A stretch of DNA of 64,000 nt from an uncultured Acidobacteriota bacterium. GTDB taxonomy: Bacteria; Acidobacteriota; Thermoanaerobaculia; Multivoradales; DATKCC01. The stretch is taken from positions 595,978-659,977 of the forward strand of contig CAVUJU010000002.1 of NCBI GenBank assembly GCA_963741925.1, given 5' to 3'. The notes under the pieces are model-generated. The model searched no databases, was not told the origin of the DNA, and saw only the letters and a program-made list of their open reading frames with translations. Shown here in pieces: positions 3,201-64,000 of this stretch. Both the position numbers and the translations under genes were made by a program. Position 1 is the first letter of the stretch; each line of letters starts with the position of its first letter.

Positions 3201-4568
3201 CTCGGCGATGCCGTACCTACCGACACGTAGCGCTCTCGCCTGGAAGGACCAGCGCGTCCCGCCGCAGTAGCTGCACGGCCCGACCTCGACGAAGGCACCC
3301 AGGCGCTCGCCGGCCTTGGTCTTTCCCGCCACCTTCTCGAACACGATCTCTTCGAACCCGGCGAAGGGCCGTGGCCTGCCGATCTTGCGACCGGAGGCGT
3401 CGCGATCGAAGACGGGCTCGTCGCCGCTCCCGCCCAGTACGAGAGCTCGGGCGTCGTCGGAGAGCTTCGACCAGGGGATGTCCGGAGAGAAGCGGTGCAT
3501 GCCCCGCAGGCCTTCGATTGTCTCATGCTGAACATTCACATACTTGTAGTTCTTCTCCGTCCAGATCGCGAATGCGCCGTCTCGCATGGAACGTTCCGGG
3601 CGCGAAACGAGGCTCTCCTCGTCGAGTCGGTAGTCCACGCCTGTCCCATGACAGTTGGTGCAGGCCCCGCTCAGCTCATGATCCGGGGCGTTGAACGAGA
3701 GTAGATGCGGAGATGGCGGCGCGAACACTCCCGGAGTCTCTGGGTGGACCCAATGTTTCGTCGAATCGAGGCGAGCTCCGAAGGGCCCCATGAGGTCCGG
3801 GTTGGACGACTCGGGCAGCATGACGACCACCGAGCCCTTGGAGGCCGCGAAGGCGAGCTCCAACATCTTGCGCAACGCCTTCCTCTGGCCAGGGCCATTG
3901 ACTTCGATCTCCCCGATCGATGCCTCGATGGTGTGCCGCACGTTTGGGTTAAGTGGCTTGAACTCGGTCGTGGGGATCGAGCGGCCAGCCTCACGGATCG
4001 ACGCGGGGTCGGTCTCGCTGCGGACCACAAGCTGCTCGATACCCTTAGATGCCAGCCGCCGAACCGCGATGCGGCCGTCCGTTCGCTCGTTCCGGATGGG
4101 AGTGGCCCAGACCTCGGCGGTGCCCCGGTAGTGTTTGGCAATCCAGCGGGAGTATGTCTCCGCCGAGGGCGGTGGCACCTCGGCTCGGGCGCGCTCGGAG
4201 TACGGCTTGGAGGCGAGGACGAATAGCCGGCGAAGCACCGACAGGAAACCCGTGGCCGTGCCGACGGTTGTCCTGACGCTCGGCTGGAAGCCGCGCTGCC
4301 CTACCAGGACTGTCGGCGGCATCCTGCCGACAAAGGCCCGCACGTCGTCGCGTTCGAGGTCATCCTGCGTGGCTCCCAGGAACAGGCGGGTCCGGCGTGC
4401 TCCCTCGGCCGCCAGCGTGTCCGCAAGAAGGGAGCTCTTCCCTGATCCGGAGACTCCCGTAACGACAGAGATTCTTCCCAACGGGAAGGCGACATCGACG
4501 TTCTTCAGGTTGTTGGCGTCGCCACCGACGACTTCGATCGCTTCCGAGCTGCGAGGACGTGCCGTCAC
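294..4568 (-). CDS. UvrA-like double ABC ATPase (~975 aa core) fused to a ~450-aa C-terminal extension of unknown function
   Basis: N-terminus IEVVGGDANNLKNVDVAFPLGRISVVTGVSGSGKSSLL and second module IEVCGASIYNLEDVDCEIPLGRLTCICGVSGSGKSS match both UvrA ABC modules. It also has two LSGGE signatures, Walker B LLDEP, and zinc-finger Cys pairs (CTNCHGTG, CPVCAGLG..CPRCGGSRY). The track ORF 294..4649 is one continuous frame. The likely true start is GTG at 4568, overlapping the upstream stop (GTGA). Confidence 0.75.
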   Translation of the reverse strand: MTARPRSSEAIEVVGGDANNLKNVDVAFPLGRISVVTGVSGSGKSSLLADTLAAEGARRTRLFLGATQDDLERDDVRAFVGRMPPTVLVGQRGFQPSVRTTVGTATGFLSVLRRLFVLASKPYSERARAEVPPPSAETYSRWIAKHYRGTAEVWATPIRNERTDGRIAVRRLASKGIEQLVVRSETDPASIREAGRSIPTTEFKPLNPNVRHTIEASIGEIEVNGPGQRKALRKMLELAFAASKGSVVVMLPESSNPDLMGPFGARLDSTKHWVHPETPGVFAPPSPHLLSFNAPDHELSGACTNCHGTGVDYRLDEESLVSRPERSMRDGAFAIWTEKNYKYVNVQHETIEGLRGMHRFSPDIPWSKLSDDARALVLGGSGDEPVFDRDASGRKIGRPRPFAGFEEIVFEKVAGKTKAGERLGAFVEVGPCSYCGGTRWSFQARALRVGRYGIAEILAMTFRQVLDLTADQGDLVQAVPREGVPFVRHLRRHASSLISVGLGYLTGDRSMIEVSKGESRRVRLARVLDAGERGLCLLLDEPARGLHESDLAPLAAAFDRLRDDHTVILNEHRETLWEAADWLVELGPGAASKGGEVVYAGPRRNWPRPSGEDRLRQPSKIARDHPKIEVCGASIYNLEDVDCEIPLGRLTCICGVSGSGKSSFLRGVLAPALLQEVGDDAEEFSLRRGRWKSISGLSSLQEIVALDQATPPANRRSLVATFSSDFDAIRKTFGSSPAARRERLSPSDFGVNAGNGRCPVCAGLGEVEDGSRFSVCPRCGGSRYTHEVLSVRVAGTNVQELLEMPVDRLGRLVDTFGISEPLISGMCDLGIGYVALGRRLDSLSGGEVQRLRLAMHLSGSVGKHTIYLLDEPAVGLHREDVRRLASALERLLEDGANTIVMVEHDLSLIRAADWVLEFGPGSGPNGGQIVFSGPPGRLEKAPTPTGRALAGKLPKPEKPAGSRPRVGGKKLSVPEQVSRTRSLLRTLIQGDGVPQALAEDGLAEPVVVLYELAEAGAEAWEVAGLDLELPKLLLDLRKPPGEAFDDLLAEWEIVPGGWLAIHPFLTDLQVWGVDLPQSVVKTTEDHLSKEGLRLVTEKGEPWASRKASLDVRRLRATGDRLVPKTGGRRERAEVLRDAFAVGSRYVELRDAHGRLVAASSERLLDLERGLVGPMAPVPVQFSRLEPAGRCLMCGGRRTVRTLDEALVVANRRLAPEEEGFLTPQANAVMKGVRRNELKPFLSRMAREGLWTARTPFERLDGRGRELILYGFWSRPGPGSFLKKRGSNPAQVSSWLRWDGLFRRLLDESQRSPDDEWARSLQESSKETPCPRCEATGFRRYARLLALADSNLAEWASLRDEKRKLGGLCKLKPATPRQKRTLERLLDCLAPLASSNRSRPLEVTEAAVKAFTTMPAARAEGSASE

Positions 4569-47293: not shown

Positions 47294-48205
<912 letters not shown>

Positions 48206-48235
48206 CGGCCGGGATGCTACCGCGCCGGCGGCGGC

Positions 48236-48475
48236 CTACGAGCTCTCTTCTCGCGCCTGGTCGATCAGCCGGACGAGGGCTTCCGCCGCATCCTTCTGGG
48301 AGGACGGCAGAGTTTCCCACAAGCTCCAGAAGGCCTCCTCCATGAGCTCGTAGGCCGGGTCCCCCTTGATCTGCGCCAACGCCATCAGGCGGCGCTTGGC
48401 GTCGGGTGTCAGTCGGGCCGTGAACGGCTCGAGGTCCCGGACCCGTCCGGCGCTTCCTGCTTTCTTCGCCGCCAT
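48236..48475 (-). CDS. 79-aa hypothetical protein (first ~37 codons duplicated at 61984-62092)
   Basis: MAAKKAGSAGRVRDLEPFTARLTPDAKRRLMALAQIKGD... Confidence 0.4.
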   Translation of the reverse strand: MAAKKAGSAGRVRDLEPFTARLTPDAKRRLMALAQIKGDPAYELMEEAFWSLWETLPSSQKDAAEALVRLIDQAREESS

Positions 48476-48599
48476 GGGCTAGAGCTTGGAAGAGAAGAGA
48501 CCTCGTTGTCAAGACAGTCGCCTGGTTGGATTCTTGGCGCTTTGATTCCTGTCCTGCGGCTCGGCCGGTTGACCCTTCCTGCTCGAGACCGCGAGATCC

Positions 48600-49280
48600 G
48601 GTTTCGCCGCCTTCGCTCCGAGAGGAGGAAGCCCCGGGAGTCGTAGTTGAAGAGCCGGGTCTGGGTGAACGAGGTCCCGGCGGCGTTCTTCGCCGTCTGG
48701 CTGACCCGCGCGAGGCGCGAACCCACGTCATAGGAATAGGTCGTCGTCGAGTCGCTGCCGTTCGGGTTCGCCGGCTCGAAGACCTGGTAGAGCCGCCCCT
48801 GGCGGTCGTAGATCTCGGTCGTGGTCGCCGAGGACTCGGTGACCGCCGTGCCGTTCCAGGCGGTGCCGACCTTCACCGTGCGATCGACCTGCCGGACGCC
48901 GTGGTAGGTCAGGGTCACGTCGTGGGCCGAGCCGTCGGGCGGCTGGATCAGCGTCGGGCGGCCGAAGGGGTCGAAGTTTCGATAGATCGTCGCGGAATTC
49001 GTCGCCCACCCGGTCTTCGACCTCACCCAGCCCGCCGCGTTGTAGTTGGTCGCCCGGCTCGAGATCGTGCCGTCGGCCATCGTCCGGCGCTCGAGGGAGA
49101 CCCGGCCCAGGCCGTCGAAGTCGAGCTCCCGGGTCGAGAGGGGCGAGCCGCCGCCGTGGGGCTTGCGGTAGATCCAGACCTTGGGCGGGTCGGTCGGGGC
49201 GCTGTAGAGGAACTGGGTCCGCCCTTCCTGGGCCGGCAGGACCAGGGTCGGCCGCCCGAGGACGTGTCCGGTTGGCAATC
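48600..49280 (-). pseudogene. truncated RHS/YD-repeat gene fragment (no start, no toxin tip)
   Basis: Encodes ...VLGRPTLVLPAQEGRTQFLYSAPTDPPKVWIYRKPHGGGSPL...FNYDSRGFLLSER, near-identical to the internal parts of 56199-61102 and 52259-55135, then diverges into non-coding read-through. Confidence 0.7.
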
Positions 49281-51315
49281 GGGATAGGCCCGGGCGAGCA
49301 AGCCCGCCCGGGTCCCCCCACAGATCCGGACGTGCGGATTTCCCGCATCCGGCTCCTCGTGACACGGGTTCGCTGCACGACGTCAAGCGGCGTGGACGAT
49401 CTTCGGCCGCGGCAAGGGGTAGGCGCCGAGGAGGCGGACGAACCGCTCCCAAGGCATCGACCTCTTGCCCGACCGCCGGTCGAGCCACTTGCGCCACTCG
49501 CGCGTGACCTGGCGGTAGAAGTTGTCGAGTGCGTGGAAGTTGCCGGTAATGCCGTAGTAACCGTAGTGGCCCTGCAGCGCTCGCGACAGCCGTCGCTGCT
49601 GCGTCGCCACGGGGTCGTGACGGCCCTGCCGACACCGTTCCCGCATCCGACTCATCGACCGAGCAAACCGACTCGCGGCCGTCGTGCGCTTGACCACCCA
49701 CGACCCTCGCTGGCGCCCACCCTTGCCCCAGAAGTGCGTGAACCCGAGGAAGACGAAGGTGCCCGGACCCTCGGGCCCGGACCCGTCGCTCCCCCACCGT
49801 GGCCGGCGGAAGCGCACCCGTCGCGTCTTCTCCGGGTGCAGGCGCAGACCGAAGCGGGCGAGCCGCTTCGGCAGCACCTCTTCCACCCGACGGGCGTCGT
49901 GCTCGTCGGCGAAGACGATCACCAGATCGTCCGCATACCGCACCAGCACAGCGCGCCCACGAAGCCGCGGTTGGACCTCTTCCTCCCACCACCGGTCCAC
50001 CACCTCGTGAAGGTAGACGTTGGCCAGCAAGGGCGAGATGACGCCTCCCTGCGGAGTCCCCGCCTCGGGGTGACGTACACGCCCCTCTTCCATCACACCC
50101 GCCTGCAGCCACTTGCCAATTGCCCTCCGGATCACGCCGTCGCGCACCCGGCGGTCGAGAAAAGACCTCAAGTGGTCCCGATCCAGCTCGTCGAAGAAGC
50201 TCTGGATGTCGACCTCCAGTACCCACCCACCCCCGAGCTCGGAGAGCTCCTTGCGCAGAACGCGCAGCGCATCGTGCGCCGAGCGACCGGGCCGAAAGCC
50301 GTACGAGCAGTCCAAGAAGTCCTCCTCGTAGATGGCCTCCAGCACCATCGTCACCGCACGCTGCAGCACCTTGTCTTCGAAGGTGGGGATCCCGATCGCA
50401 CGGGTCTCCGACCCGGTGCCTTTCGGAATGTGAGCCCGCTGGACCGGCGGCGCTCGGTAGAGGCCTGACTTGAAGCGGTCGAGAAGCGACCGGAGGTTGC
50501 CCCCGAGGTTCTCCTCGTACTGCTTCGCCGTCCGGCCGTCGATGCCTGGCGCTCCGTCCTTGCGGGTCCGGGAGTAGGCCTCCCAGAGCCAGTGCTCGTC
50601 GATGTAGTGAGCCAGACTGAGAAACGACCGCTCGTGGTCCTCCCTCGCCAGCCTCGCTATCCGACGAAGTCGCGTTGAGATGCTCCCGAGATTCGGCGAT
50701 CCCGACATCGTTCCCCTCGTTCGGTTCCGTGTCCCGGAGCCCCCCTTCCCTCCACCGGGTCCCTTGGGTCGGTTCCCCGGCTTCCACGGTACTACGGGGG
50801 CTCTCTGACTCCCCACCACCCTTCCCGCCGGGCTCGGTTTCCTTCGCCGGGCGGTACCGCCTGTGCGACCGCTCCTTCGCTCCCGGGGTGCGCGGTCGGC
50901 CTCGACCACGGGCCTGGATCTTGGGTCAGCCGGGACCCTCACCGGCACGTTCTTCGGCGGAGATGGAAGGGCCTCCCAGGTTCCTGGAGGGACCCTTGGA
51001 CGTATGCCGTGCTCTCTGACCCCGGCCGAGCCCTTGCGCCAGGCCATTGCGGCGCTCGGGTGCTGTCGCCCGTTCCACTACAAGGACGACCTCAGCGAGA
51101 CGTGCATTTCGAGGCTCCATCACACGGCCTCCGCCCTCGCTGTCTACGCTTCGCAGGTGCCCTTGCGGTGCCGCCCACGCAAGACTCGCTTCTGGCTGGT
51201 GGCCAACCTTTGCCAGGCGGGGCTCACACCCGCCGGGTCCCATCTGGAAAGTTTCCGGCTCTGTTGACCCGCGTCTACATCACCTTCCTCCTTCCCCAGG
51301 CTTTGCCTGGCGCAC
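49280..51315 (-). mobile_element. group II intron (~2.0 kb) with intron-encoded RT/maturase
   Basis: The reverse-strand 5' end is GTGCGCCAGGCAAAGCC (51315 downward). The domain V hairpin GAGCCGGATGCGGGAAATCCGCACGTCCGGATCT lies at 49302-49338, followed by a domain VI-like helix. The IEP ORF lies in the domain IV position. Confidence 0.75.
49383..50708 (-). CDS. group II intron-encoded reverse transcriptase/maturase (no En domain evident)
   Basis: RT motifs RAIGIPTFEDKVLQ, PQGGVISPLLANVYL, RYADDLVIVF and the maturase/X region WLQAG...FLGFTHFW. SD GAGGGGAA precedes the ATG at 50708. Confidence 0.85.
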   Translation of the reverse strand: MSGSPNLGSISTRLRRIARLAREDHERSFLSLAHYIDEHWLWEAYSRTRKDGAPGIDGRTAKQYEENLGGNLRSLLDRFKSGLYRAPPVQRAHIPKGTGSETRAIGIPTFEDKVLQRAVTMVLEAIYEEDFLDCSYGFRPGRSAHDALRVLRKELSELGGGWVLEVDIQSFFDELDRDHLRSFLDRRVRDGVIRRAIGKWLQAGVMEEGRVRHPEAGTPQGGVISPLLANVYLHEVVDRWWEEEVQPRLRGRAVLVRYADDLVIVFADEHDARRVEEVLPKRLARFGLRLHPEKTRRVRFRRPRWGSDGSGPEGPGTFVFLGFTHFWGKGGRQRGSWVVKRTTAASRFARSMSRMRERCRQGRHDPVATQQRRLSRALQGHYGYYGITGNFHALDNFYRQVTREWRKWLDRRSGKRSMPWERFVRLLGAYPLPRPKIVHAA

Positions 51316-51401
51316 AGTGGCTGGCACCTCTCCGCCGGCACCAGGGTCGGCCGCCCGCGAGGACGTCACCGGTTGAAAGGCGGCTGGCACCTCTCTACAG
51401 C

Positions 51402-52262
51402 TTACCACCCCTCTTTAGCAGCGGTCACTCGTATGAGCAACGGGAGCTGGAGCTCGATCCGCGCGTTCGCGCTAGAACCGGTAGGTCTCTGTTCCAAGTG
51501 ATAGACGAAGGTGGTCGTCAAGGTCTTGCTCGTTTCGGGGCGAAACTGCCATGTTTCGATGTTGGCGGCGGCCTCGGCGCCGAGAAGGCGTTCTCCCGAG
51601 AGCAGCTTCGTGGAAATCACCTTTCCTGCCTGCACTACGACTTTCAAGACCACTTCGCCCGAAATTCCGGCTCGCCGAGCCATCTCAGGATACTTAGGTA
51701 CTTCCGCCGCAACGACTAGAGGCGGCTTTTCCTCCGTTCGAAATCGGATTACCCTGGCAGCGATCTCGCGCGGCGCGGGATGCGCTTCGAGAACCTCGTT
51801 CACGACAAGCTTGGTGCGGAAGCCGTCAAGATGCCCATATCGCCTTCCAGAAACCCGATTCGCATACGCCACAATGGGATTCACTGACAAGTCCTCGGGA
51901 CCCAAAGGCTTCGGGCCGTAGAGTTCGCCGCGAATTGTGACCGAGGCAGAGTGGGACGCCTCGAGAATTCGATCTAAAACGTTACGCCCTGGAGCCTGCG
52001 AACTGACTTCGACCCACGTCGAGGGCTGGACGTCCCATGGGCACAGTGGGTAGTCCGGATCAAAAAAGACCTGTTGCTCCATGCCACTCAGGATTACTCC
52101 AGAGAGGCGAACAGGGATCCGTTGTCCCGCGTTCGCCCTTACCAATGCGGAGCAGAGGTAGAGAACTTCTTCCTGGTTCCTCGCAGTTTGAGCCGGCTGG
52201 CCGCCCAGCACGGTCAGAAGAATTGCTGCTCCTACGCTCAGAGTGATGCTCTTCATAGTCAT
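51402..52262 (-). CDS. exported protein with C-terminal TonB_C-like domain; candidate immunity protein of the orphan RHS toxin
   Basis: Signal peptide MTMKSITLSVGAAILLTVLG and a C-terminal PKYPEMARRAGISGEVVLKVVV. GC is ~50%. It lies immediately downstream of the RHS C-terminal tip. Confidence 0.45.
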   Translation of the reverse strand: MTMKSITLSVGAAILLTVLGGQPAQTARNQEEVLYLCSALVRANAGQRIPVRLSGVILSGMEQQVFFDPDYPLCPWDVQPSTWVEVSSQAPGRNVLDRILEASHSASVTIRGELYGPKPLGPEDLSVNPIVAYANRVSGRRYGHLDGFRTKLVVNEVLEAHPAPREIAARVIRFRTEEKPPLVVAAEVPKYPEMARRAGISGEVVLKVVVQAGKVISTKLLSGERLLGAEAAANIETWQFRPETSKTLTTTFVYHLEQRPTGSSANARIELQLPLLIRVTAAKEGW

Positions 52263-55135
52263 TGCCAGTCTGGAAGCTGGCGTGGCCCTTGGTCCTCGGG
52301 ATTTACGTGGTAATCGCCACTAGGGTTTGCCAAAATTCTCTTGATGGCCATGTTCACTTCTGCGTCCGTCTTCAATCCACCACCGAGAACGCACCCGCTG
52401 CAGCCGGTCGAGTATCGTTCGCCGGCCTGTCTGTACACGGAGTTAGTCAAGTGGAAGGCATTGGTCTCGGTCTGATAGACAGTCAGGTTCTTAGATATGT
52501 CATATGTAACCCACGGCGCGGACGGCAAATTCTGGAAAGTGCTGACAAACGCGCCAGCATCAAGGAGATGTTGTCCTTCGTGAGCGACAGCCGCTCTCAG
52601 CTCGGTCCCATTGAGACCTGGTTTTAGAGTGACGATTCCGCCCAATAGCCAGCTGCCATCGGCGTTGTTCTGCGCGTATGCCTTGGTCGTGCCGCTAGCT
52701 TCTTTGGTATCGCCGAAAGCCACCGTGATGCCGTTGCTCTCGCCAGGCTCGCCGTAAGAGAGAGCTGCATTTCGGACTGCTTCGTCCTTGCTCTTGAGGT
52801 CCTCTTGACGTGCGTTCTCGAAGGAGGCGGAATCTTTCTTGCACTGCCCTTCGTCGTCGATGGAGCAATTCACAACATAGTTGCCGGTCGGATCTGTGTA
52901 TTTGAGAGGATTGTCCTCGGTGTACGCATAGCGATTCCACGACTGCGGCTGGCGAGCGTTTCCGAGAACTGGGTCCACCCGTAGGAACCGCCCGAGCTGG
53001 GGGTTGCAGAACCTCGCATGCATGTAGTCCAAGTCGTCGGCCGCCGAGCTCGTATTGGCGAGATCTCTCTCGTGGCCGGCGAATTTCATGCGCTCGGTGT
53101 CCTGGGTGGGGTTCGTCGCCTCTTCGCCGAAGGGGAAGTAGGCGTGGTAGGCGAGGCCCTGGCCCGAAGCGTTGGTGATGAACCGGACCGAGCCCAGGTG
53201 GTCGAGGTGGAAGTGCTGGACCCCCGAGGGGGTGACCGCCGCCAGGAGCTGGCCGCCCCGGTAGACGTAGTCCCGGTCGACCGACCAGCCGCCGCCCAGG
53301 TTCTTGTAGTCGCGCAGGACCTTGCCGTCCAGGTCCCGGACTGTCCAGTGTGAGGTGTTCGCCGCCAGGTCGTAGGACCAGATCCGCTCGCCGTCGGCCG
53401 TGTAGAGGTAGAGCCAGTCCTTCGAGCCGGGGTTGAAGTCCCACATCTGATCGAGGGCATCGTACTGGTAGGCGTTGCCGTTCCAGGACGTGAGGTTGCC
53501 CGCGGCGTCGTAGGAGACCGCGCCGGTCAGCCGGTTCGTGGTCGAAGAGGTGGGCGTCGAGCGGCCGGTCTTCGTGGTCATGGCCTGGAGGTTTCCGAAG
53601 CCGTCGTACGTGTGGCTGAAGGCGTAGCCCCCCGCGGCCGTGCCGCCGCCCTGGCCGACGTACTGGACGCCCGAGAGCACTCGGTTCACCTTGTCGTAGA
53701 GATAGTACGAGCTCCCCATCTTGGTCACGTCGCCGGCGCCGTCGAAGGTGTAGAGCCCGGTCTGGTAGAGGAGCGTCGTGCCGCGCCTGGCCTCGATCTT
53801 CTGCGGCCGGGGGAGGTTGTAGGGGTCCTTCGCGTAGGTGTCGGTCACCCAGGTCGCGGCGTTGCCCGGCGTGTTGACGTGGGTCACCTGGTTCACCTGG
53901 CCGTTCGGGTGGTAGGTGATCGAGCTCGAGTAGCCCGGCACCGCGGTCAGGAAGCCGTTGGTGTAGGTGGGGCTCACAGTCCGAACCGTCCCGGCAGAGC
54001 AGCCCGCCTGCGTGCACCGCGGGTAGGTCACCGACGCCGGATCCCCCAGGTCGTTCCAGACCCAGCTCTGGGTGAAGCTCTCGGCAGCCGAGCCGTTGAC
54101 CACGTTGACCGTGTTGCGATTCGAGACCCGTCCCTCCTTGCCCCCGTAGGCGTAGGTCTCATCGATCTCGACGGTGTAATTCGTCGCTCCGATCACCGGG
54201 TAATTGTACCCCCGGGCCACCTGGAGCTTGCCCAGGCGGTAATCGCCCGCGCCGTTGGCCGTGGCGAAGGTGAAGCTCTTCAAGGGGCGGTAGAGGCCGA
54301 AGCCCTGCGACTCCTCGACCTTGGTCAGTCGCTCGGCCCCGTCGTAGGTGAAGCGGAGGGTATTCGGCCCGTCCGTCATCTGCCCCGCGTGGCCCCGGGC
54401 GTCGTAGCTCCCGTAGGTGACGTAGCCGTTGCCAGAGGACCCCGTCTCCGGATGGCGCTCCGAGAGGAGGAAGCCCCGGGAGTCGTAGTTGAAGAGCCGG
54501 GTCTGGGTGAACGAGGTCCCGGCGGCGTTCTTCGCCGTCTGGCTGACCCGCGCGAGACGCGAACCCACGTCATAGGAATAGGTCGTCGTCGAGTCGCTGC
54601 CGTTCGGGTTCGCCGGCTCGAAGACCTGGTAGAGCCGCCCCTGGCGGTCGTAGATCTCGGTCGTGGTCGCCGCGGACTCGGTGACCGCCGTGCCGTTCCA
54701 GGCGGTGCCGACCTTCACCGTGCGATCGACCTGCCGGACGCCGTGGTAGGTCAGGGTCACGTCGTGGGCCGAGCCGTCGGGCGGCTGGATCAGCGTCGGG
54801 CGGCCGAAGGGGTCGAAGTTTCGATAGATCGTCGCGGAATTCGTCGCCCACCCGGTCTTCGACCTCACCCAGCCCGCCGCGTTGTAGTTGGTCGCCCGGC
54901 TCGAGATCGTGCCGTCGGCCATCGTCCGGCGCTCGAGGGAGACCCGGCCCAGGCCGTCGAAGTCGAGCTCCCGGGTCGAGAGGGGCGAGCCGCCGCCGTG
55001 GGGCTTGCGGTAGATCCAGACCTTGGGCTCTCGTCGCTTCCTCGGATTGACGTGATCAAATTTAAAGTTCGCTCTCCGGCCGAAGAAGCCACTTGGCGTT
55101 GCTATGTAAGACGCTCGGCGTGGTCTCTTGCGCAA
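52259..55135 (-). CDS. orphan (5'-truncated) RHS repeat cassette with alternative C-terminal toxin domain
   Basis: From KVWIYRKPHGGGSPL through ...CNPQLGRFL it is ~95% identical to the main RHS gene. After the YTDPTGNY boundary it continues into a unique ~250-aa C-terminus. A unique 37-aa N-terminus provides the start. Confidence 0.7.
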   Translation of the reverse strand: MRKRPRRASYIATPSGFFGRRANFKFDHVNPRKRREPKVWIYRKPHGGGSPLSTRELDFDGLGRVSLERRTMADGTISSRATNYNAAGWVRSKTGWATNSATIYRNFDPFGRPTLIQPPDGSAHDVTLTYHGVRQVDRTVKVGTAWNGTAVTESAATTTEIYDRQGRLYQVFEPANPNGSDSTTTYSYDVGSRLARVSQTAKNAAGTSFTQTRLFNYDSRGFLLSERHPETGSSGNGYVTYGSYDARGHAGQMTDGPNTLRFTYDGAERLTKVEESQGFGLYRPLKSFTFATANGAGDYRLGKLQVARGYNYPVIGATNYTVEIDETYAYGGKEGRVSNRNTVNVVNGSAAESFTQSWVWNDLGDPASVTYPRCTQAGCSAGTVRTVSPTYTNGFLTAVPGYSSSITYHPNGQVNQVTHVNTPGNAATWVTDTYAKDPYNLPRPQKIEARRGTTLLYQTGLYTFDGAGDVTKMGSSYYLYDKVNRVLSGVQYVGQGGGTAAGGYAFSHTYDGFGNLQAMTTKTGRSTPTSSTTNRLTGAVSYDAAGNLTSWNGNAYQYDALDQMWDFNPGSKDWLYLYTADGERIWSYDLAANTSHWTVRDLDGKVLRDYKNLGGGWSVDRDYVYRGGQLLAAVTPSGVQHFHLDHLGSVRFITNASGQGLAYHAYFPFGEEATNPTQDTERMKFAGHERDLANTSSAADDLDYMHARFCNPQLGRFLRVDPVLGNARQPQSWNRYAYTEDNPLKYTDPTGNYVVNCSIDDEGQCKKDSASFENARQEDLKSKDEAVRNAALSYGEPGESNGITVAFGDTKEASGTTKAYAQNNADGSWLLGGIVTLKPGLNGTELRAAVAHEGQHLLDAGAFVSTFQNLPSAPWVTYDISKNLTVYQTETNAFHLTNSVYRQAGERYSTGCSGCVLGGGLKTDAEVNMAIKRILANPSGDYHVNPEDQGPRQLPDWQ

Positions 55136-55156
55136 GCCAACAGCAATAGGCCCAAC

Positions 55157-56179
55157 TTACTGCGCGTGATGCAGTGATTGTCTCCAAACTGTCTCAGACT
55201 GGGGTCTGGGTCCAGTGGTCGTGACAAAGACAAGCTCCCTCTCCTCTGCGTTGGAGGCGTCGACGAGCAGCCGATCCGCTCCCGCTCGACGCACAGTCGT
55301 TGGTGACAAGCTTTCGGAGCGCCAGACTTCCCACTTGCTCAGCTCTTCGTCGATCGTCTCGATGTGGCAGTTCTTGGGGTGCGTGGGGCTGACCACCTCG
55401 CAGCTTGCGACGTAGGCTTGCTCTCCTTGTCCGTAAATCCACAAGACGTTCTTTATCTTGAGCTGATCGAGACTAAAATCCTTCCAGATGTACACTCGAT
55501 CGCCTTTCCTAAGCAGTAAGCTTGCTCCGACACGGACAACATCATCTGGCAACCAAGACCAAGGGAAAGTATGATCGACGAACCGCCCGAGCGGGTCGAC
55601 CTCGCGGAGAGCTACGCCTCCGTCAAGCCGCCGGAAGCAGGTCGCTCTTCCGTCTTCTCCGAACCGGGGGAAAAGGCAATCGAGCGGCAAGAGAAGCGAC
55701 CTCCGTAAAGGCCCTCGTGCTGACATAGGTGGGATTTCGATGTCGCACATATCAATATCTATTGTTGCGTTACAAAGAATGACGTCGCCAGCTGCGTCCT
55801 CGGCAGACACGGCTGAGAGACCAAGAGCCATGTCGAGGTATCTCGAGGTCATAGGGGAACCTCCCTCGTCGAGTACGAGAACCCTGCCTTCTTCCTGGTG
55901 TCCCCGGAGAAGCACCACGGTTGACCCCGATGAGGTCTGCCAGAAGGAGCTGATTAACCGAGCATTCTGGCCCTTCAGAAGCGGCTCCCATCCGCGCTCA
56001 ATACTCCACGAACATATGCCATCATCTTGTGGGCATAAAAGAGCAAAGCCCACAGGACTCTTCGACGTCGGTGAACTCTCAGCGCTTAGTGAGAAGCCAA
56101 GTCTCATGGCCAGTGCTCCGAGGACTATCAAGGAGCGTGAGACGTGAGAAAGCTTAGCGGTCAGGCGGTATCTTCTCAT
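55157..56179 (-). CDS. low-GC hypothetical protein; candidate immunity protein for the main RHS toxin
   Basis: Possible start MRRYRLTAKLSHVSRSLIVLGALAM (signal-like); the track ORF alternatively starts at 56218. GC is ~52%. It sits directly downstream of the RHS toxin tip. Confidence 0.4.
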   Translation of the reverse strand: MRRYRLTAKLSHVSRSLIVLGALAMRLGFSLSAESSPTSKSPVGFALLCPQDDGICSWSIERGWEPLLKGQNARLISSFWQTSSGSTVVLLRGHQEEGRVLVLDEGGSPMTSRYLDMALGLSAVSAEDAAGDVILCNATIDIDMCDIEIPPMSARGPLRRSLLLPLDCLFPRFGEDGRATCFRRLDGGVALREVDPLGRFVDHTFPWSWLPDDVVRVGASLLLRKGDRVYIWKDFSLDQLKIKNVLWIYGQGEQAYVASCEVVSPTHPKNCHIETIDEELSKWEVWRSESLSPTTVRRAGADRLLVDASNAEERELVFVTTTGPRPQSETVWRQSLHHAQ

Positions 56180-56198
56180 GGACGGTTTCTCTGTATCT

Positions 56199-59100
56199 TC
56201 AATAGTCTTGGTGCACAAGCCTGTCGAGCAGATCCCGGCCAGCTCTCAAAGAACCTAGACCTGAAATTGCGTTTAGCTGTTGCTGTCTCTCCCTTCTGTT
56301 CCTTGGTTTCTTTGCTTCTTTCAAATCTTTGGCGATTTGCTTCTGAGCCTTGAGCGCCGCGTCCGACTCGTAGCCGGTGTATGATAGCCGAACTCCCGTT
56401 TCATTTTTTTTGAAACGCGCCTTAAGTGTCATTCCTGTTTCGCGCAGCTCCAAAACGTGGAACAACTCGTGACCGACGCGGGCAGCTCCGTAGTCGCCGA
56501 CTCGTAAGTGGATGACTACGCTCACTGCCCCGTCCTTGTAGAGAGTTTGGTCTTGGACGGCGTCGCTGCCCGGCGGCGACGTTGCCTGGGGAGCTCCAAA
56601 GTCCACGAGTACTTCGCTGGCTGGAAGGTTGTCTAGGGCTGTAAAGATTCTTTCGAACTCAGCGCTGTGAGAACGTCCGCTTGTGACGCTTTCCTGTAGC
56701 CAGTCGGGAACACGTACTTCTTGACCGTCGGGATCAGTCAAAGTTAGTGGGTTGGCTCTTGAATAGAGATAACGGTTCCAGCTCTGTGGCTCGGCTGGCA
56801 CAGCTGCCTCGGTAACATCAGTCGAGAGAAACCGCCCAAGCTGCGGATTGCAGAACCTGGCATGCATGTAGTCGAGGTCATCCGCAGCCGAGCTCGTATT
56901 GGCGAGGTCGCGCTCGTGCCCGGCGAATTTCATGCGCTCGGTGTCCTTGGTGGGGTTCGTCGCCTCTTCGCCGAAGGGGAAGTAGGCGTGGTAGGCGAGG
57001 CCCTGGCCCGAAGCGTTGGTGATGAAGCGGACCGAGCCCAGGTGGTCGAGGTGGAAGTGCTGGACCCCTGTGGGCGTGACGGCCGCCAGGAGCTGGCTGC
57101 CGCGGTAGACGTAGTCGCGATCGACCGACCAGCCACCGGGGCCGTTCTTGTAGTCGCGCAGGACCTTCCCGTCCAGGTCCCGGACCGTCCAGTGGGAGGT
57201 GTTCGCCGCCAGGTCGTAGGACCAGATCCGCTCGCCGTCGGCCGTGTAGAGGTAGAGCCAGTCTTTCGAGCCGGGGTTGAAGTCCCACATCTGGTCGAGG
57301 GCATCGTACTGGTAGGCGTTGCCGTTCCAGGCCGTGAGGTTGCCCGCGGCGTCGTAGGAGACCGCGCCGGTCAGCCGGTTCGTGGTCGAAGAGGTGGGCG
57401 TCGAGCGGCCGGTCTTCGTGGTCATGGCCTGGAGGTTTCCGAAGCCGTCGTACGTGTGGCTGAAGGCGTAGCCCCCCGCGGCCGTGCCGCCGCCCTGGCC
57501 GACGTACTGGACGCCCGAGAGCACTCGGTTCACCTTGTCGTAGAGATAGTACGAGCTCCCCATCTTGGTCACGTCGCCGGCGCCGTCGAAGGTGTAGAGC
57601 CCGGTCTGGTAGAGGAGCGTCGTGCCGCGCCTGGCCTCGATCTTCTGCGGCCGGGGGAGGCCGTTCGGGTCCTCGAAGTAGGTGTCGGTCACGCCGTTCG
57701 TCCGGACGACCTGGTCGACCTGGCCGTTCGGATGGTAGGTGATCGAGTTGCTGTAGCCCGGCACCGCGGTCAGGAACCCGTTGGTGTAGGTGGGCGTCAC
57801 GGTGCGGATCGTCCCGGCCGCACAGCCCGCCTGGGTGCACCGCGGGTAGGTCACCGACGCCGGATCCCCCAGGTCGTTCCAGACCCAGCTCTGGGTGAAG
57901 CTCTCGGCAGCCGAGCCGTTGATCACGTTGACCGTGGCGCGATTCGAGACCCGTCCCTCCTTGCCCCCGTAGGCGTAGGTCTCATCGATCTCGACGGTGT
58001 AGTTCGTCGCTCCGATCACCGGGTAATTGTACCCCCGGGCCACCTGGAGCTTGCCCAGGCGGTAATCGCCCGCGCCGTTGGCCGTGGCGAAGGTGAAGCT
58101 CTTCAAGGGGCGGTAGAGGCCGAAGCCCTGCGACTCCTCGACCTTGGTCAGTCGCTCGGCCCCGTCGTAGGTGAAGCGGAGGGTATTCGGCCCGTCCGTC
58201 ATCGTCCCCGCGTGGCCACGGGCGTCGTAGCTCCCGTAGGTGACGTAGCCGTTGCCAGAGGACCCCGTCTCCGGATGGCGCTCCGAGAGGAGGAAGCCCC
58301 GGGAGTCGTAGTTGAAGAGCCGGGTCTGGGTGAACGAGGTCCCGGCGGCGTTCTTCGCCGTCTGGCTGACCCGCGCGAGACGCGAACCCACGTCATAGGA
58401 ATAGGTCGTCGTCGAGTCGCTGCCGTTCGGGTTCGCCGGCTCGAAGACCTGGTAGAGCCGCCCCTGGCGGTCGTAGATCTCGGTCGTGGTCGCCGAGGAC
58501 TCGGTGACCGCCGTGCCGTTCCAGGCGGTGCCGACCTTCACCGTGCGATCGACCTGCCGGACGCCGTGGTAGGTCAGGGTCAAGTCGTGGGCCGAGCCGT
58601 CGGGCGGCTGGATCAGCGTCGGGCGGCCGAAGGGGTCGAAGTTTCGATAGATCGTCGCGGAATTCGTCGCCCACCCGGTCTTCGACTTCACCCAGCCCGC
58701 CGCGTTGTAGTTGGTCGCCCGGCTCGAGATCGTGCCGTCGGCCATCGTCCGGCGCTCGAGGGAGACCCGGCCCAGGCCGTCGAAGTCGAGCTCCCGGGTC
58801 GAAAGGGGCGAGCCGCCGCCGTGGGGCTTGCGGTAGATCCAGACCTTGGGCGGGTCGGTCGGGGCGCTGTAGACGAACTGGGTCCGCCCTTCCTGGGCCG
58901 GCAGGACCAGGGTCGGCCGGCCGAGGACGTCGTACTGGTAGGTGGTGGCGAGCCCCGAGACGTCGCGGCTCGTCTTGACCAGGCCGCTCCCGAGGTCGAT
59001 CACCCGATCCAGGGACTTGAACGGCTGGCCCGAGTACTGCGAGCTCGCCAGCACGCCGGCCTGGTAGCTGTGGTCGATCTGGTACCTCGCGGCCGGCAGG

Positions 59101-61102
59101 GCGAGCCCGCAGAGGCCCCCGGTCCCGAGGCCCTGCGTGTCGCCGCCGAAGAACTTCTCGCTCGTGACGTTGCCCACGCCGTCGCGGACGTAGACCGTGA
59201 CGAGGTCGGTCGAGCTCCGGGTCGTCCCGCTCCGAAGCGTCCGGGTACTCGTGAGAGCGCCCGTCGTGCCGTCGAAACAGGCCTCGGTTTTGGCCGTCAC
59301 GCCCCCCTCGGTGACCGTTTGGTAGGTGTAGGTGCCGAGCAACCAGGCCGCGCCTGTCGCCGGCGTGCAGGTGGCGCAGGAGCCCGGGTTGTAGTTGGTG
59401 AAGGTGGTGCGCACGTTGCCGGCGGCGAAGTTGCCGCCCGTCGCGACCTGGCGGTAGTGGCCCAGGCCGTCGAAGCTCGAAGAGTTTGTGTCGGCAAAGG
59501 TCCCGCCGTCGTCCACGTAGACCGTCCGCTCCGAGGCGACCCGCGGGTTGAAGTCCTGGCCGCTCGACTCGTAGCGCACGTAGATCCGCCGCTTGACCGC
59601 GCTCGCCCCCTGGCGGATCTCGCTCGAGAGGAACCGAGTGCCGCTCGCGTCCTTGGCGTTGCGGGTGAAGGGCAGGCCGTAGTCGTGGTACGACCAGCCG
59701 CCCGGGTCCGGGTCCTGGGTGGAGCAACCGCTGATCCCAGGCTGGCAGGCGTAGACGCTGAAGTAGTGGGTCGTCTGGTTGCCGAGGGGGTCGGTCACGG
59801 TCGTCGTCGACGCGCGCCCGATGCCGGAAGAATCGGAGGTGAACCCCTCCTGGTAGGTCCACGTCCCCTCGACCGTGCCGTCGGCCTGGACCGTCTGGCG
59901 CTGGACGACCCCCACCGAGCGGCTGAAGGGCCGCAGGCCGAAGCCACCGCTGGGCCCCTGCTTCAACACCCCGCCCAGAGTCTCGGACCTCTTGGGGAAG
60001 AGGTAGTAGTTCCAGCTCCACCGGAGCGTGCCGTGGGTCGGGAGCGTCATCGAGAGCAGGTGGGCCGACCGGCTGTCGGTCTGGGCGAGGTCGCAGGCGC
60101 CGTGGTACGGGCCGGGGTCGTAGGTGAAGTCATAGGCCGGCACCTGGCTCTGCGGCGTCCGCGGGTCGCTCCGCGTGATGCTCGTCAGCAGCGGGACGAC
60201 CACCGTGGTCGAGGCGTAGGCGCACGAGAGGGCCGGATCGGTCATCCCTCGCGTCACCTCGGTCCCCGAGTAGTGGAAGGTGTAGGTGAGCGTCTGGCCG
60301 CCGAAGGCGGTCACGACCACCCGGTCCACGACGCCCTCCTTGTACACCTTCGCGAGCGCCGGCGCCGGCTTGAAGTAGATCATCTGGACCCGGTGGAGTG
60401 AGTCGGTGAGCCTCCAGTTCTCGAGGCCCGGGTAGGTTGCCGAGGCGAGGTACTCGATGTTCAGGAAGTTGCCGAACCGGTCTTCGATCCGGGTGGGCCG
60501 TTCATTCCCCGTCTTCGAATCCTTCACCAGATCACGCCGGGTGCCGTCGGGGAACTCGAGAACGTGGGGCGCGACGCTGGTGTTGTAGCGCAGGTAGGTG
60601 CTGTCCTTCGTGTACTTGAAGCCGGTGGCGGTCGACCCTCCGAGGTGGAGGCTGACGGCGAGGGGGTGTTCGGCTCCGTCGGGGCTCCGGTAGCCGCCCG
60701 GGTTGGTGTTGGTGGTCGGCTCGACGGTCCCGAAGGAGAGGTGCCAGCCGAGCCCCGAATTGTCTGAGGCCCGAGGCACGGCCATCAGGTAGTAGCCGCC
60801 GGTGGCGAGGTTCTCGTCGAGCTCGTAGTCCCAGACATTGCCTGTATACGTCAAGACGAGGGGTACAGAGAAGCCGCCGTTGACCGGGTACGAGGCGAGC
60901 GGAATCTGTACCGTGAGGTTTCCGTTGAACTCGTTGATGCTGTCGAGGTCCCCGAGCTGGTAGAGGTGCTCGGGCTGGAAGCCCTGGGCGTGATTCGGGT
61001 GCTGGAGGCCCGCGGCCGGCAGGGCGGCCAGGGCGAGGAGTAGGGCGAGCCCGGCGGCCGGGCGAAGGGTGGAAGGGCGGGGCGAGGCGGAAGGGCTCAT
61101 GG
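56199..61102 (-). CDS. full-length RHS/YD-repeat protein with signal peptide and C-terminal HExxH toxin-like domain
   Basis: Start ATG 61102 with GGAGAG SD, then signal MSPSASPRPSTLRPAAGLALLLALAALPAAG. Many YD repeats, an RHS core ending ...TDPDGQ, and a C-terminal ~215 aa containing GHELFHVLE. Confidence 0.8.
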
Positions 61103-61126
61103 TCGTCTCTCCGGGGCGGGGTCGGT

Positions 61127-61900
61127 TCAGGGCTCTTGGCCCGGCGGCACCAGCCGGGCGGCGAAGTAGTCGAGGGTGTCCAGGTTGACCGCCATCACCA
61201 CGTCGCCGACGGCGAGCTCGGCCGGCGGTGCCGGGGCGGCCTCGATCGGAAGGGCCGAGGCGAGGTCGACCTCGGCGCCGGCAGCCGTCGGGCTGCCTTG
61301 CGCCCCGCGCGACGCCGCCCCGCGCCAGGCCCCCACCCCGGGCCGGACGAAGAGGACCTCCGCCCGCTCCCAGGAGGTGTGGAGCCGCCTCACCACGCCC
61401 CCCGGCGCCTGGGCGAGACCGTCGGCCGGGAAGGCGACCTCGTGGGCGATCGACCCCTCCGGGCTCGCGAGGCCGAGCTCGCCGGTGCCCGTGTCGATCG
61501 CCGCCCAGACCGAGAACGGGGCGACGCCGTCCGGCACTTCGTAGCGGAGGGTGCCCGTCGCGTCCGCCGTCAGGACCTCGTCGGTCGGTACCAGCGCCCA
61601 GTAGTAGACATCGTGGTAGCGGCTCACCCCGTGGAGGATCACCTCCGCCGCCGGCCCGAGGCCGCTCACCACCACCGCGTCCGGCTCGAATGCGATCTCC
61701 GGCGGCGAGCTCGCCGCCGGCTTCAAGGGGATCGGTGCCATCGCCCCCGCGGCGACCGACCCCGCGAGGAACGAGGTGAGGACCAGGAAGCCGACCCGCC
61801 AGGAGGCACGAAGCGGCCTCGCGACCCGGCAACCAGGAGACCAACGTCCGTAACCCCGCGAAGGATCTGTCGCGGTCGAGTCCTTCGGTCTTCTTGTCAT
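61127..61900 (-). CDS. hypothetical membrane-anchored/exported protein upstream of RHS
   Basis: MTRRPKDST...RVGFLVLTSFLAGSVAAGAMA, about 255 aa. The track ORF 61127..62110 extends 5' into the duplicated small-gene fragment. Confidence 0.4.
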   Translation of the reverse strand: MTRRPKDSTATDPSRGYGRWSPGCRVARPLRASWRVGFLVLTSFLAGSVAAGAMAPIPLKPAASSPPEIAFEPDAVVVSGLGPAAEVILHGVSRYHDVYYWALVPTDEVLTADATGTLRYEVPDGVAPFSVWAAIDTGTGELGLASPEGSIAHEVAFPADGLAQAPGGVVRRLHTSWERAEVLFVRPGVGAWRGAASRGAQGSPTAAGAEVDLASALPIEAAPAPPAELAVGDVVMAVNLDTLDYFAARLVPPGQEP

Positions 61901-61983
61901 GAGCATTCTCCCAATATGTAGCGAAGCGTCGGGCCCTGTCCGAGCGGCCACCGCGCCGGGCTGCGGGACCACCTGGCCGCCCT

Positions 61984-62092
61984 CGATCTGCACCAGTGCC
62001 CTCAGACGACGCCCGGCGTCGTGCATCAGGCGAGCCGTGAAGGGCTCGAGATCCCGGACCCGCCCATCTGCTTTGGCTTTCTTGCTGACCAT
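61984..62092 (-). pseudogene. 5' fragment (about 37 codons) duplicating the small gene at 48236-48475
   Basis: MVSKKAKADGRVRDLEPFTARLMHDAGRRLRALVQIEG versus MAAKKAGSAGRVRDLEPFTARLTPDAKRRLMALAQIKG. The nucleotide similarity extends a few bp upstream of both ATGs. Confidence 0.6.
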
Positions 62093-62294
62093 GGGCTTGA
62101 GCTTATACACGGAGATGTACGCATGTCAAGAACTTTCTGCATTGAGATTCCTGGCGCCCAGATTCACGCCGGCGGGCTGGCGGAGAGCTTCCGGGGCCTT
62201 CCGGGTGGCCGGCCTCGGGTGACACAGGGTTCAGGTAGAGCGAGGATGACCTGGCGGGCCACCGACCGGCGAGCGGGCGATTGTCGGACCTGGC

Positions 62295-63581
62295 CTATCG
62301 CCAGGTCGCGGCCCGCCGGCGCAGGGCCTCGGCCTCGGCCACCTTGGTCGGCAACTCGAGCCGGCGGAAGACGGGGAGGGCTTCCTCCGTCAGGCGTTCG
62401 ACCTCGTGGCGTTCATGCTGGTCGGCTTGGAGCTCGGCCAGATCGAGTGCCACATGCGCCGCGTCGTAGAAGAGACCGACCGCAGCGAACTCGCTGCGGA
62501 CTCCGGTGAGCCCCGCGAGAGCGTCTTCCCGGTCGCCGCCTCGCCGGGAAATCTTCGCCATGACCCATCTCTGTCGAAGTCGGCTGATGGCATCGCTCTG
62601 GCGCTCGAAGAGCTCCTCGCTTTCGCGGGCCACTCGGATCGCCTGCTCCAGATTGCCGGCGTCGCATTGGTAGTTCACGAAATGCTCGCGCGCGAAGCGC
62701 AGCAGGCGCGCGTCCGGTGCCGCCTGCAGCACCCTTTCAACTTCGCCAACAGTTGCCAGGGCAGGTTCAAACTGACCCTGCCTGCTCTGTGCCCGACCCA
62801 GGTTGAGGAGCGTCGAAGCGGCCAATCGTGGCCTGCTCTCCAGGCGGTACACCATCAATGCGCGCAGTAGGCGCGAGATTGCCAGGTGAGGGCGCCACTG
62901 GTCAGTCCGGAGACTCCCTTCGAGACCATCCAGCTCCGCCCGGAGAAGGCGGTCGCCGCAGCCGAGGGTGCGGAAGAAGTACCGGGCGTCGCCCAGGATT
63001 TGATCGGCCCGCGGCAGGTCGCCGATGACCCGGATCGCGTTGGCCAGGTAGGCGAGGGCGCGGACGTAGAGCTCGCAGGCGTAGGCGGAGAGTGGAGTGT
63101 GGTGGAGGACGAGGCGGGCGAGGCGGGCGTGGGTGGCCGCTTCCTTCGGACGCTCCGGGGCCTTCTTCCGGCTGTCCTCGATGAGCATCTCGGCCAGGAG
63201 GAGGCCCGCGAAGCGCTCCGGCTCGCGGCGGACCCGCTCCGCCTGTTCGGCGGGCGAGAGGCGAAGGAGCTCCTCGGCCCCGGAGCGGGCCTCACGCTCT
63301 TCGGCCGCGGCCCTGGCTTCCTGGGCGCCCGGCACGTCGTTCGAGTTGGCGGGCTTGGGCGCCACCCTGGCCCGGAACCGATCGAGGACCGCCTCGTAAT
63401 CCTCGGGGCCGGTCGCGGGGACGCCCTCGCCCAGCTCCCGGCGCCAGGACTGAAACTCCCTACGGCACCGCGGGCAGAGCTCGAAGAGGTGAGCCAGGGC
63501 GATGGCGGCCAGGTCGCCGGGGTTGCGCCAGCCGCCGGAGATCGCCCGGAAGAGGTCGCGGGTGACGTGCTCGTCGGTCAC
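62295..63581 (-). CDS. hypothetical alpha-helical/TPR-like protein
   Basis: 428 aa with no catalytic motifs. A partial paralog lies downstream of 63837. Confidence 0.4.
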   Translation of the reverse strand: MTDEHVTRDLFRAISGGWRNPGDLAAIALAHLFELCPRCRREFQSWRRELGEGVPATGPEDYEAVLDRFRARVAPKPANSNDVPGAQEARAAAEEREARSGAEELLRLSPAEQAERVRREPERFAGLLLAEMLIEDSRKKAPERPKEAATHARLARLVLHHTPLSAYACELYVRALAYLANAIRVIGDLPRADQILGDARYFFRTLGCGDRLLRAELDGLEGSLRTDQWRPHLAISRLLRALMVYRLESRPRLAASTLLNLGRAQSRQGQFEPALATVGEVERVLQAAPDARLLRFAREHFVNYQCDAGNLEQAIRVARESEELFERQSDAISRLRQRWVMAKISRRGGDREDALAGLTGVRSEFAAVGLFYDAAHVALDLAELQADQHERHEVERLTEEALPVFRRLELPTKVAEAEALRRRAATWR

Positions 63582-63836
63582 CTGCGCAGAGTAGCACTCC
63601 TCGGCGCGCCGATCGAGCTACGGCAACCCGTTTCGAGTCACCTGGAATTGGGCCGACGAGAGGTGTTCTCGCCCCACTTGCGGGCGGGCCCGGGACTCGC
63701 CCGCGATCTTCCGGGGCTCGGCCTCGACCTGGAGACCGATCGGCTCGGACAGTCGCGGCTGGACGTCGAAGGCCGCGGCCCGTCGCTATTCACGACGTCG
63801 ACCAGATTCAAGGTTGCTGTGCTGCGGTCGGCGTGC

Positions 63837-64000
63837 TCGATCTTACGCGCTGGCGGCTCGCCGAACCAAGCTCTCGGCCTCGACCACCTTCGTGGGAAGC
63901 TCCAGCCGTCGGAAGACAGGGATCGAGTCCGCCATCAAGCGCTCCACCTCGTGGCGATCTCCCTGGTCAGCGTAAAGGCGAGCGAGGTTTAGTGAAGCCA
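63837..64000 (-). CDS. 3' end of a paralog of the 62295-63581 gene (continues past window end)
   Basis: Nucleotides 63850-64000 are ~75% identical to 62295-62450, with the same C-terminal coding end. Confidence 0.4.

Follow-up and report, generated by a model that had tools for sequence, protein, structure and literature searches.

Why does a group II intron lie directly beside an uninterrupted near-copy of the site that it occupies? The question is raised by a stretch of DNA of 64,000 nucleotides (nt) from an uncultured Acidobacteriota bacterium (assembly GCA_963741925.1, contig CAVUJU010000002.1, positions 595,978 to 659,977), which we call the window and whose own numbering we use throughout. 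The intron, its parts, its target units and the neighbouring RHS and TonB_C genes are all on the minus strand. A first reading of the letters, the original prediction, noticed the near-copy and offered two explanations: either the local region was tandemly duplicated and only one copy was invaded, or the intron was captured while RHS cassettes were being rearranged. It also read both copies as RHS coding sequence. We will argue that the duplication is genuine, that the recognition sequence does not belong to RHS, and that the empty unit is probably a near-cognate member of a small target array that existed before the intron invaded it. We give this last conclusion a probability of about 0.68.

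The intron is complete and 2038 nt long (49278-51315). Its boundaries are fixed by Rfam models together with the points at which homology to its relatives ends. The distal part of domain I (51010-51226), which holds both exon-binding sites (EBS), matches RF02005, the group-II-D1D4-6 type, over the full length of the model (positions 1-225, 128 bits against a gathering score of 49, E = 4e-36). Domains V and VI (49278-49357) match all 77 positions of RF00029 (47 bits), and this match ends at the AU. Similarity to more than a dozen related introns from other contexts ends exactly before GTGCG and after CCCGAT, so the intron begins with GUGCG at 51315-51311 and ends with CCCGAU at 49278 (terminal CCUAUCCCGAU). 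Domain V starts GAGCCGG, with an AGC triad, the bulged A of domain VI lies 8 nt from the 3' end, and the ribozyme without its open reading frame (ORF) is about 710 nt long. The covariance-model boundaries agree with those of the original prediction, which had offered itself for refutation on this point, and joining the exons, across the junction GCCAGCCACT|TGCCAACC, gives exactly the string it had proposed.

The intron-encoded protein (IEP) is a 441-residue reverse transcriptase with a maturase (X) domain and a YADD motif, encoded in domain IV (49383-50708). It matches Pfam RVT_1 at residues 94-324 (E = 9e-33) and the NCBIfam model of group II reverse transcriptase/maturases, TIGR04416, at residues 40-412 (340 bits, cutoff 300). 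Beyond RVT_1 Pfam gives no match even at E = 10, and the maturase model is followed by no more than 29 residues, so we agree with the original prediction that the protein has no DNA-binding/endonuclease (D/En) domain. The C-terminal DNA-binding and HNH domains that define the HNH endonuclease IEPs of the chloroplast-like, mitochondrial-like and B classes are accordingly missing. The protein is identical to P0128, and its cluster at 90% identity holds two full-length ORFs, one truncated ORF and two fragments, perhaps of a single broken copy (two large NCBI contigs). The best annotated plasmid relatives, ltrA genes of Halomonas, Bradyrhizobium, Methylocystis and Rhizobium, are 54-55% identical.

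Other copies of the intron are close at hand. In what follows, L numbers denote contigs or loci that were compared with the window. L082 carries a copy that is 99.7% identical, on a contig from the same sample as one of the two short-read assemblies discussed below, and introns 97% identical were found in four other flank contexts on metagenome contigs whose flanks are unrelated. These several near-identical copies point to recent mobility. Judged by its sequence, then, the element is an intact and recently mobile bacterial group II intron, IIB-like (Rfam D1D4-6 type), with a reverse transcriptase/maturase that lacks an endonuclease (En).

How does this intron recognize its target? The EBS that the original prediction called for, complementary to its proposed intron-binding sites (IBS), are both present and covary with the exons in relatives. 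EBS1 is AGUGG, in a hairpin loop at intron positions 237-241 (51075-51079) that the Rfam model leaves unpaired, and it pairs at all five positions with IBS1, CCACU (-5 to -1; 51320-51316). EBS2 is UGCAC, at intron positions 210-214 (51102-51106) directly 3' of a conserved CGAAA, and pairs at four of five positions with IBS2, GUGCC (-12 to -8; 51327-51323). In relatives EBS1 changes along with the end of the exon over its last 5-7 bases (UCACAG/CUGUGA, UUCGC/GCGAA, AUCGU/ACGAU, AUGCUC/GGGCAU, UUCCUC/GAGGAA and more of the kind). Contiguous EBS1-IBS1 pairing counted from -1 averages 5.7 nt; permuting the exons lowers it to 3.1, and no value above 4.3 occurs in 2000 permutations. EBS2 pairing is specific to its register: over 24 unique intron/exon pairs it averages 3.96 of 5, against 2.62 under permutation, and none of 5000 permutations gets as high; neither set of counts is a strict probability since the sequences are related by descent. 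We nevertheless find the EBS2 covariation convincing as a sequence pattern, because of the number of different pair types that appear despite this kinship (GGCUC/GAGCC, GUGAG/CUCAU, GUGUG/CACAC, UGUCU/AGACG). EBS3 was not located in the comparison, where the compared introns supply one informative variant at +1.

Two other candidates for EBS2 were rejected. CUGGCA (intron 100-105) is ruled out as one strand of a stem in which every relative has a compensatory change (U-A versus C-G). CUGGCGC (intron 274-280) was dropped: it is the 3' strand of a hairpin stem that itself covaries, it lies 3' of EBS1, and its pairing is not significant across the family. This second strand, in a domain I hairpin at 51058-51031 (intron 258-285), is complementary at seven of seven positions to exon bases -12 to -6 in five introns. 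It changes along with the exon in L004, L005, L011 and L040 without a significant family-wide pattern, and in the genome of L009-L011 EBS2 fits two exons while a strand of the CUGGCGC type fits the third.

The two target units can now be compared. Read along the minus strand, the stop codon taa of the upstream gene (51404-51402) is followed by gctgta, GAGAGGTGCCAGCCGCCTTTCAACCGGTGACGTCCTCGCGGGCGGCCGACCCTGGTGCCGGCG, GAGAGGTGCCAGCCACT, the intron from GTGCG to CCCGAT, and TGCCAACCGGACACGTCCTCGGGCGGCCGACCCTGGTCCTGCCGGCC. The gene is the TonB_C gene (51402-52262; 286 residues, profile match), whose stop lies 6 nt before the uninterrupted unit, which we call unit E. The occupied unit consists of the 5' half GAGAGGTGCCAGCCACT (51316-51332) and a 3' half whose first 12 nt, TGCCAACCGGAC (49266-49277), are by sequence comparison its part that is not RHS. 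Unit E is 63 nt long (51333-51395), so the near-copy of the original prediction stands while its extent, given as 51333-51397, has to be corrected. It opens with a hairpin motif, GAGAGGUG-CCAGC-CGCCUUUC (51395-51375; alignment and folding), and closes with an intergenic RHS-like tail (51367-51334) of about 37 nt with two indels. Compared with the joined exons, it agrees at each of its first 14 nt and, ungapped across the junction, at 16 of 20 positions, and the whole is about 85% identical with two small indels.

Could this resemblance be chance, or an artefact of assembly? Nothing speaks for it except the high G+C content (70%), which inflates short matches. The local alignment score of unit E is 72, while 2000 shuffles gave a mean of 14.9 and a maximum of 29, and BLAST of the 3' part of the near-copy gives E = 2e-6. 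The end of the gene, unit E and the 5' exon are identical in two independent short-read assemblies (SRR27973224 and ERR11718636). Both assemblies end 12 nt inside the intron, as expected of a multi-copy element; their agreement and their common breakpoint tell us that the arrangement is real and that the intron is repeated in the genome. We regard chance and artefact as refuted for practical purposes. The Rfam models, the homology endpoints and the two assemblies together confirm an intron adjoining an uninterrupted near-copy of its own site, and the alignment, with a sequence variant that we come to below, bears out the idea of a tandem duplication: we read the two units as a true local duplication of which one was invaded.

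The original prediction took the empty copy as a direct read-out of the homing site. The IBS2-IBS1 that it proposed, about GGTGCCAGCCACT, is correct; as an exact read-out the empty copy fails, since the two units differ at -3, -1, +2 and +3. The point in unit E that corresponds to the insertion lies between 51379 and 51378, with GCCAGCCGCC on its 5' side. IBS2 is the same as in the occupied unit and IBS1 is CCGCC, which against EBS1 gives a G·U pair at -3 and a C·A mismatch at -1. A near-identical intron occupies a site ending in GCCGCC at L086, so unit E would be a weaker rather than an immune site, and we infer that it remains usable for homing. It folds as an 8-bp hairpin (GAGAGGUG/CGCCUUUC, loop CCAGC, -10.4 kcal/mol, z = -2.1), and the intron is inserted inside the 3' arm of the target hairpin. 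Six of the roughly eight substitutions between the units fall within -3 to +12. This cluster may reflect survivor bias, if it is the poor targets that stay empty, a hairpin constraint that was lost once the intron had inserted, or co-conversion of the flanks.

The question then becomes whether RHS has anything to do with the target. The window holds a full-length RHS gene of 1633 residues (A, 56199-61100; family match and alignment), an orphan RHS ORF of 958 residues (B, 52259-55135) that shares 95% identity with gene A along about 2 kb, and an internal core remnant of 652 nt next to the intron (C, 48614-49265) that is 99% identical to 58279-58930 of gene A, the source of this repeated segment, part of which also recurs at 54456-55028 in orphan B. 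One could therefore suppose that duplication and intron alike are by-products of RHS cassette recombination, with RHS as the homing site and the intron trapped while an orphan was rearranged. A single core segment in three copies within 11 kb fits such a history. So does the RHS-like sequence in both units: unit E shares the GGGCGG variant that is specific to remnant C, which tells us that the 63-nt duplication came after the junction between motif and RHS fragment.

The recognition sequence itself, however, is not RHS. Identity to RHS begins at +13 (49265), and alignment to the RHS copies of the window gave no convincing homology in IBS2, IBS1 or +1 to +12. We tried to extend the homology across the insertion point (GCCAGCCACTTGCC and onward against GCCACCACCTACCA and onward); the alignment then needed three gaps, and we did not consider it significant. 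At the corresponding place in the full RHS gene there is no competent site. Remnant C is truncated at both ends and lacks a toxin tip, and the spliced frame has no start codon past the upstream stop and ends in unrelated sequence, so no continuous frame of the kind expected of an RHS orphan cassette runs over the site. By these features the remnant is a leftover fragment and not a gene that the intron interrupts, and the reading of both units, and of the homing site, as RHS coding sequence has to be given up. A non-RHS recognition sequence, together with the same architecture at loci that have no RHS, weakens an RHS-specific origin, and we consider it unlikely.

Two further observations belong here. 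An exact inverted copy of 15 nt of the target 5' half (GAGAGGTGCCAGCCG) lies at 60736-60750 on the plus strand, within the full RHS gene (GWHLS is encoded there on the minus strand); the next bases do not match EBS1, so by sequence it is probably no target for the intron. A 792-residue ORF (48409-50787, minus strand) carries the RHS frame from inside the intron across the 3' splice site into the remnant. It is an artefact of high G+C that a gene caller could mis-annotate.

The loci without RHS make the case for an array. In the window the target motif is GAGAGGTG-CCAGC-CRCYTTTC, which forms a hairpin and begins 6 nt past the stop codon; the general form that we favour is GAGARGGTG-CCAGC-CRCYTTTC, an imperfect palindrome with a hairpin of 7-8 bp. 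The search for further intron copies and their flanks, which the original prediction had recommended, found introns 97% and 84% identical at or beside tandem copies of this motif. The 97%-identical introns, with EBS1 AGUGGC, are inserted directly after GCCGCC at L086 (in longer form GAGAAGGTGCCAGCCGCC), GCCGCT at L085 and at the first intron of L093, GCCACT at the second intron of L093, and CCCACT at L083. L086 has a second motif copy 31 nt upstream of its intron. L093 has two introns 31 nt apart with the motif before each. At L175 the intron is 84% identical, its EBS1 has changed to GUGCC, and it sits in the fourth of four tandem units of the form G(G)TGCCAGGCACC-TTCCGCTGCC, in an array that starts about 20 nt past the stop codon of a gene. 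L086, L093 and L175 all present the motif in tandem in contexts without RHS, which counts against an RHS origin of the window site, and together with the arrays described next it makes capture during cassette rearrangement unnecessary.

The same motif is also found in arrays that hold no intron. A metagenome scan with the form of the site found in the relatives (GAGARGG and onward, one base longer than the window site) gave 78 matches, none of them occupied, and in six contexts extra copies of the core lie within 200 nt. L164 has three units of 24 nt about 35 nt past the stop of an ORF, the array of L144 begins 11 nt past an ORF stop, L128 has 8 copies, L127 and L135 have extra core copies, and L152 has an inverted pair. 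The viral contigs gave 0 matches for occupied junctions and 0 for motif pairs, and an Rfam search assigned the arrays to no known family. In form and clustering the motif resembles REP/BIME elements (repetitive extragenic palindrome, bacterial interspersed mosaic element): it is a short, imperfect, intergenic palindrome that clusters 3' of ORFs in the window, L144, L164 and L175 and occurs as an inverted pair at L152. The 513 kb of loci examined around related introns whose EBS1 differs contain it only at insertion sites of the window intron's subfamily.

It is important to realize that several observations weigh against a pre-existing array. The scan pattern fits the relatives' form of the motif and could not match the window's own GAGAGGTG. 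The intron-free arrays come from metagenome contigs. Within the 64 kb of the window the motif occurs in the two units only, so a dispersed repeat family is not demonstrated in the source genome. The window duplication spans 63 nt, runs well past the motif and includes RHS-like sequence, so the units are not simply two independent copies of the motif. Finally, the extra target copies always lie 5' of the intron (in the window, L086, L175 and partially L011), and if this bias is real, random invasion of an existing array would not explain it.

This last point leads to another explanation, in which the intron made the duplication itself. Retrohoming might be resolved with a stagger, much like a target-site duplication: cDNA primed at about +46 on the bottom strand would extend across the intron and into the 5' exon by 17 nt before being joined to the old strand end. 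Alternatively a tandem pair of introns like that of L093, where they stand 31 nt apart, might have lost the upstream one precisely. The layout of the window, with the target 5' half and 3' positions 1-46 followed by another 5' half, the intron and the 3' half, is exactly what the staggered model requires. The 5' position of the extra copies every time fits as well, as do the repeated IBS motifs upstream of the intron Ge.ur.I1-1 (PMC3753933). Against this, the units are about 15% different, a divergence not seen among copies of the intron within one genome (99.7% identical), and motif arrays exist without any intron. At 27 other insertion sites of related introns no good upstream copy was found outside the subfamily (of 28 regular-expression matches, one fell by chance in another part of the window); only the window scored in the family-wide test, with 2 mismatches, which confines the phenomenon to the GGTGCCAG subfamily and L175. 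Group II retrohoming is precise at both junctions, and we know of no duplication as its by-product. We consider an origin of the duplication in the intron's own activity quite improbable.

We therefore return to an array that was there first. Our scenario builds on things seen directly: the anatomy of the intron, its EBS-IBS pairings, the duplication, the multi-copy status, and a tandem motif that recurs with and without related introns. A two-unit array with a 63-nt period, just 3' of the TonB_C gene and abutting a decayed RHS orphan fragment, would have been in place before the intron arrived. The target would be about 25 nt of DNA read by base pairing, EBS2 with -12 to -8 and EBS1 with -5 to -1. 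The intron would have reverse spliced into the unit with the perfect IBS1-EBS1 match, while its neighbour stayed empty. Priming from the nascent strand at a replication fork is an established route for introns such as RmInt1 that lack En. Since the IEP here lacks an endonuclease as well, we presume that cDNA synthesis was primed in this way; GC skew gave no signal for the orientation of the intron relative to replication. A scan for promoters and terminators found no such site at the locus, which suggests that the intron is transcribed by read-through of the upstream operon. In such transcripts unit E could act as an alternative 5' splice site, by analogy with Ge.ur.I1-1. Most likely the mechanism is canonical, and the habit of targeting arrays is a modestly novel lead.

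A wider claim can be made, which we hold tentatively and think more doubtful than our conclusion about the window. An En-less IIB-like lineage, in Acidobacteriota-like metagenome-assembled genomes, may have specialized on a REP-like hairpin motif, GGTGCCAG[C/G]CAC, in tandem arrays directly downstream of genes. EBS2 would stay constant on the 5' arm, EBS1 would follow the variants of the 3' arm (AGUGG for CCACU, GUGCC for GGCAC), and the arrays would serve as safe landing pads with several slots and as alternative 5' splice sites. In a bolder version the intron itself may multiply target units on its own 5' side.

Three side observations concern related introns. At L011 (about 2350-2388) a 13-nt tandem duplication (AGGAATAGGTGTC, two copies) includes IBS2 and directly precedes IBS1, a miniature of the upstream-copy pattern. 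L172 and L173 share an 85%-identical intron and its 3' flank. Their 5' flanks differ, and the GGTGCCAGCC motif forms one of them; the contigs may represent two true sites, or a repeated element may have been assembled into a chimera. In two different genomes another subfamily (EBS2 GUGAG, EBS1 ACGG; L174, 1-58, and L003, about 3940-4007) is preceded, about 20 nt upstream, by a long GC-rich hairpin that is conserved (GCGGAC...CCCGGGCGTTCGCCCGGG...GCCGC), a second palindromic, repeat-like target in the clade.

The surroundings of the intron have features of their own. From 48000 to 64000, the RHS region, G+C is 64-67% against 71-76% in the rest of the window, which is consistent with an acquired island. 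The C-terminal tip of the full RHS gene has an HELFH motif, and the region also holds a gene of 353 residues with no family match. The start of the TonB_C gene overlaps the stop of orphan B, so it may be an immunity gene. A direct repeat of 135 nt, 78% identical, brackets the RHS locus (48355-48487 and 61972-62104); its downstream copy, at 48355-48487, lies inside a 79-residue ORF (48475-48236) just before a gene for a XerD-like recombinase (48205-47294).

What does the locus offer? It is a natural side-by-side pair of an occupied target and a near-cognate empty one, different at -3, -1, +2 and +3, and retrohoming assays on it could reveal the rules of specificity that an En-less intron, so far uncharacterised, obeys. 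In annotation the RHS fragment should be treated as a remnant, and the RHS framing is largely incidental to the intron. The repeated tie of an intron lineage to tandem hairpin-motif arrays directly downstream of genes is worth following. If it holds genome-wide, it would be a second and independent route to harmless, transcribed and repeated landing sites, a base-pairing counterpart of the strategy by which group IIC introns use terminators and attC sites, and would explain high copy number without damage to genes.

Known systems share parts of this picture. The order of RHS sequences is that of a main gene with orphan cassettes: a full gene comes first, next an orphan that is truncated at its 5' end, has a C-terminal region of its own and is followed by a small gene, and last a core fragment. 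Unlike a cassette, the fragment beside the intron is an internal remnant of 652 nt with no toxin tip, and it is not what the intron recognizes. Group IIC introns lack EBS2, are much smaller and insert after a stem-loop. At terminators and attC sites they resemble the window intron in choosing intergenic hairpin motifs directly 3' of genes, where no gene is disrupted and read-through transcription is possible. The window intron differs from them in having an EBS2 that covaries with the exon, in the AGC triad of its domain V, and in its insertion point, which lies within the 3' arm of a hairpin that the intron recognizes by base pairing.

In the groEL gene of E. coli, IIB1 introns form head-to-tail tandems with no spacer, because the 5' G of the first intron recreates IBS3 (Gomes et al. 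2025, PMC12584367). L093 likewise has more than one intron copy at a locus, 31 nt apart, but introns of the window type use separate target units. In a survey of REP elements as targets of mobile elements, 2 of 9 copies of group II introns in P. putida were REP-associated (Tobes and Pareja 2006, PMC1525189). Like REP and BIME sequences, the window motif is a short intergenic palindrome in tandem or inverted pairs on which a mobile element lands; unlike them, motifs of the window type are irregularly spaced (24-99 nt) and mostly in direct orientation. A further parallel to the layout of the window is Ge.ur.I1-1, a class F intron of Geobacter uraniireducens, in which upstream copies of IBS1 or IBS2-IBS1 act as alternative 5' splice sites in vitro (Nagy et al. 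2013, PMC3753933). Both introns have extra IBS copies just upstream in the 5' exon. Those of Ge.ur.I1-1 are very short and lie 9 and 19 nt upstream, while that of the window is a 63-nt unit 63 nt upstream.

There remains the comparison with the introns that lack an endonuclease, RmInt1 of class D and the lineages of classes E and F; we liken the window intron to them as a group and do not place it in one ORF class. All have an IEP without a D/En domain, recognition by EBS1 and EBS2, multi-copy behaviour, a small ribozyme, and insertion outside essential coding sequence. The difference lies in the landing site: RmInt1 homes into an insertion sequence, the window intron into an array of short hairpin motifs.

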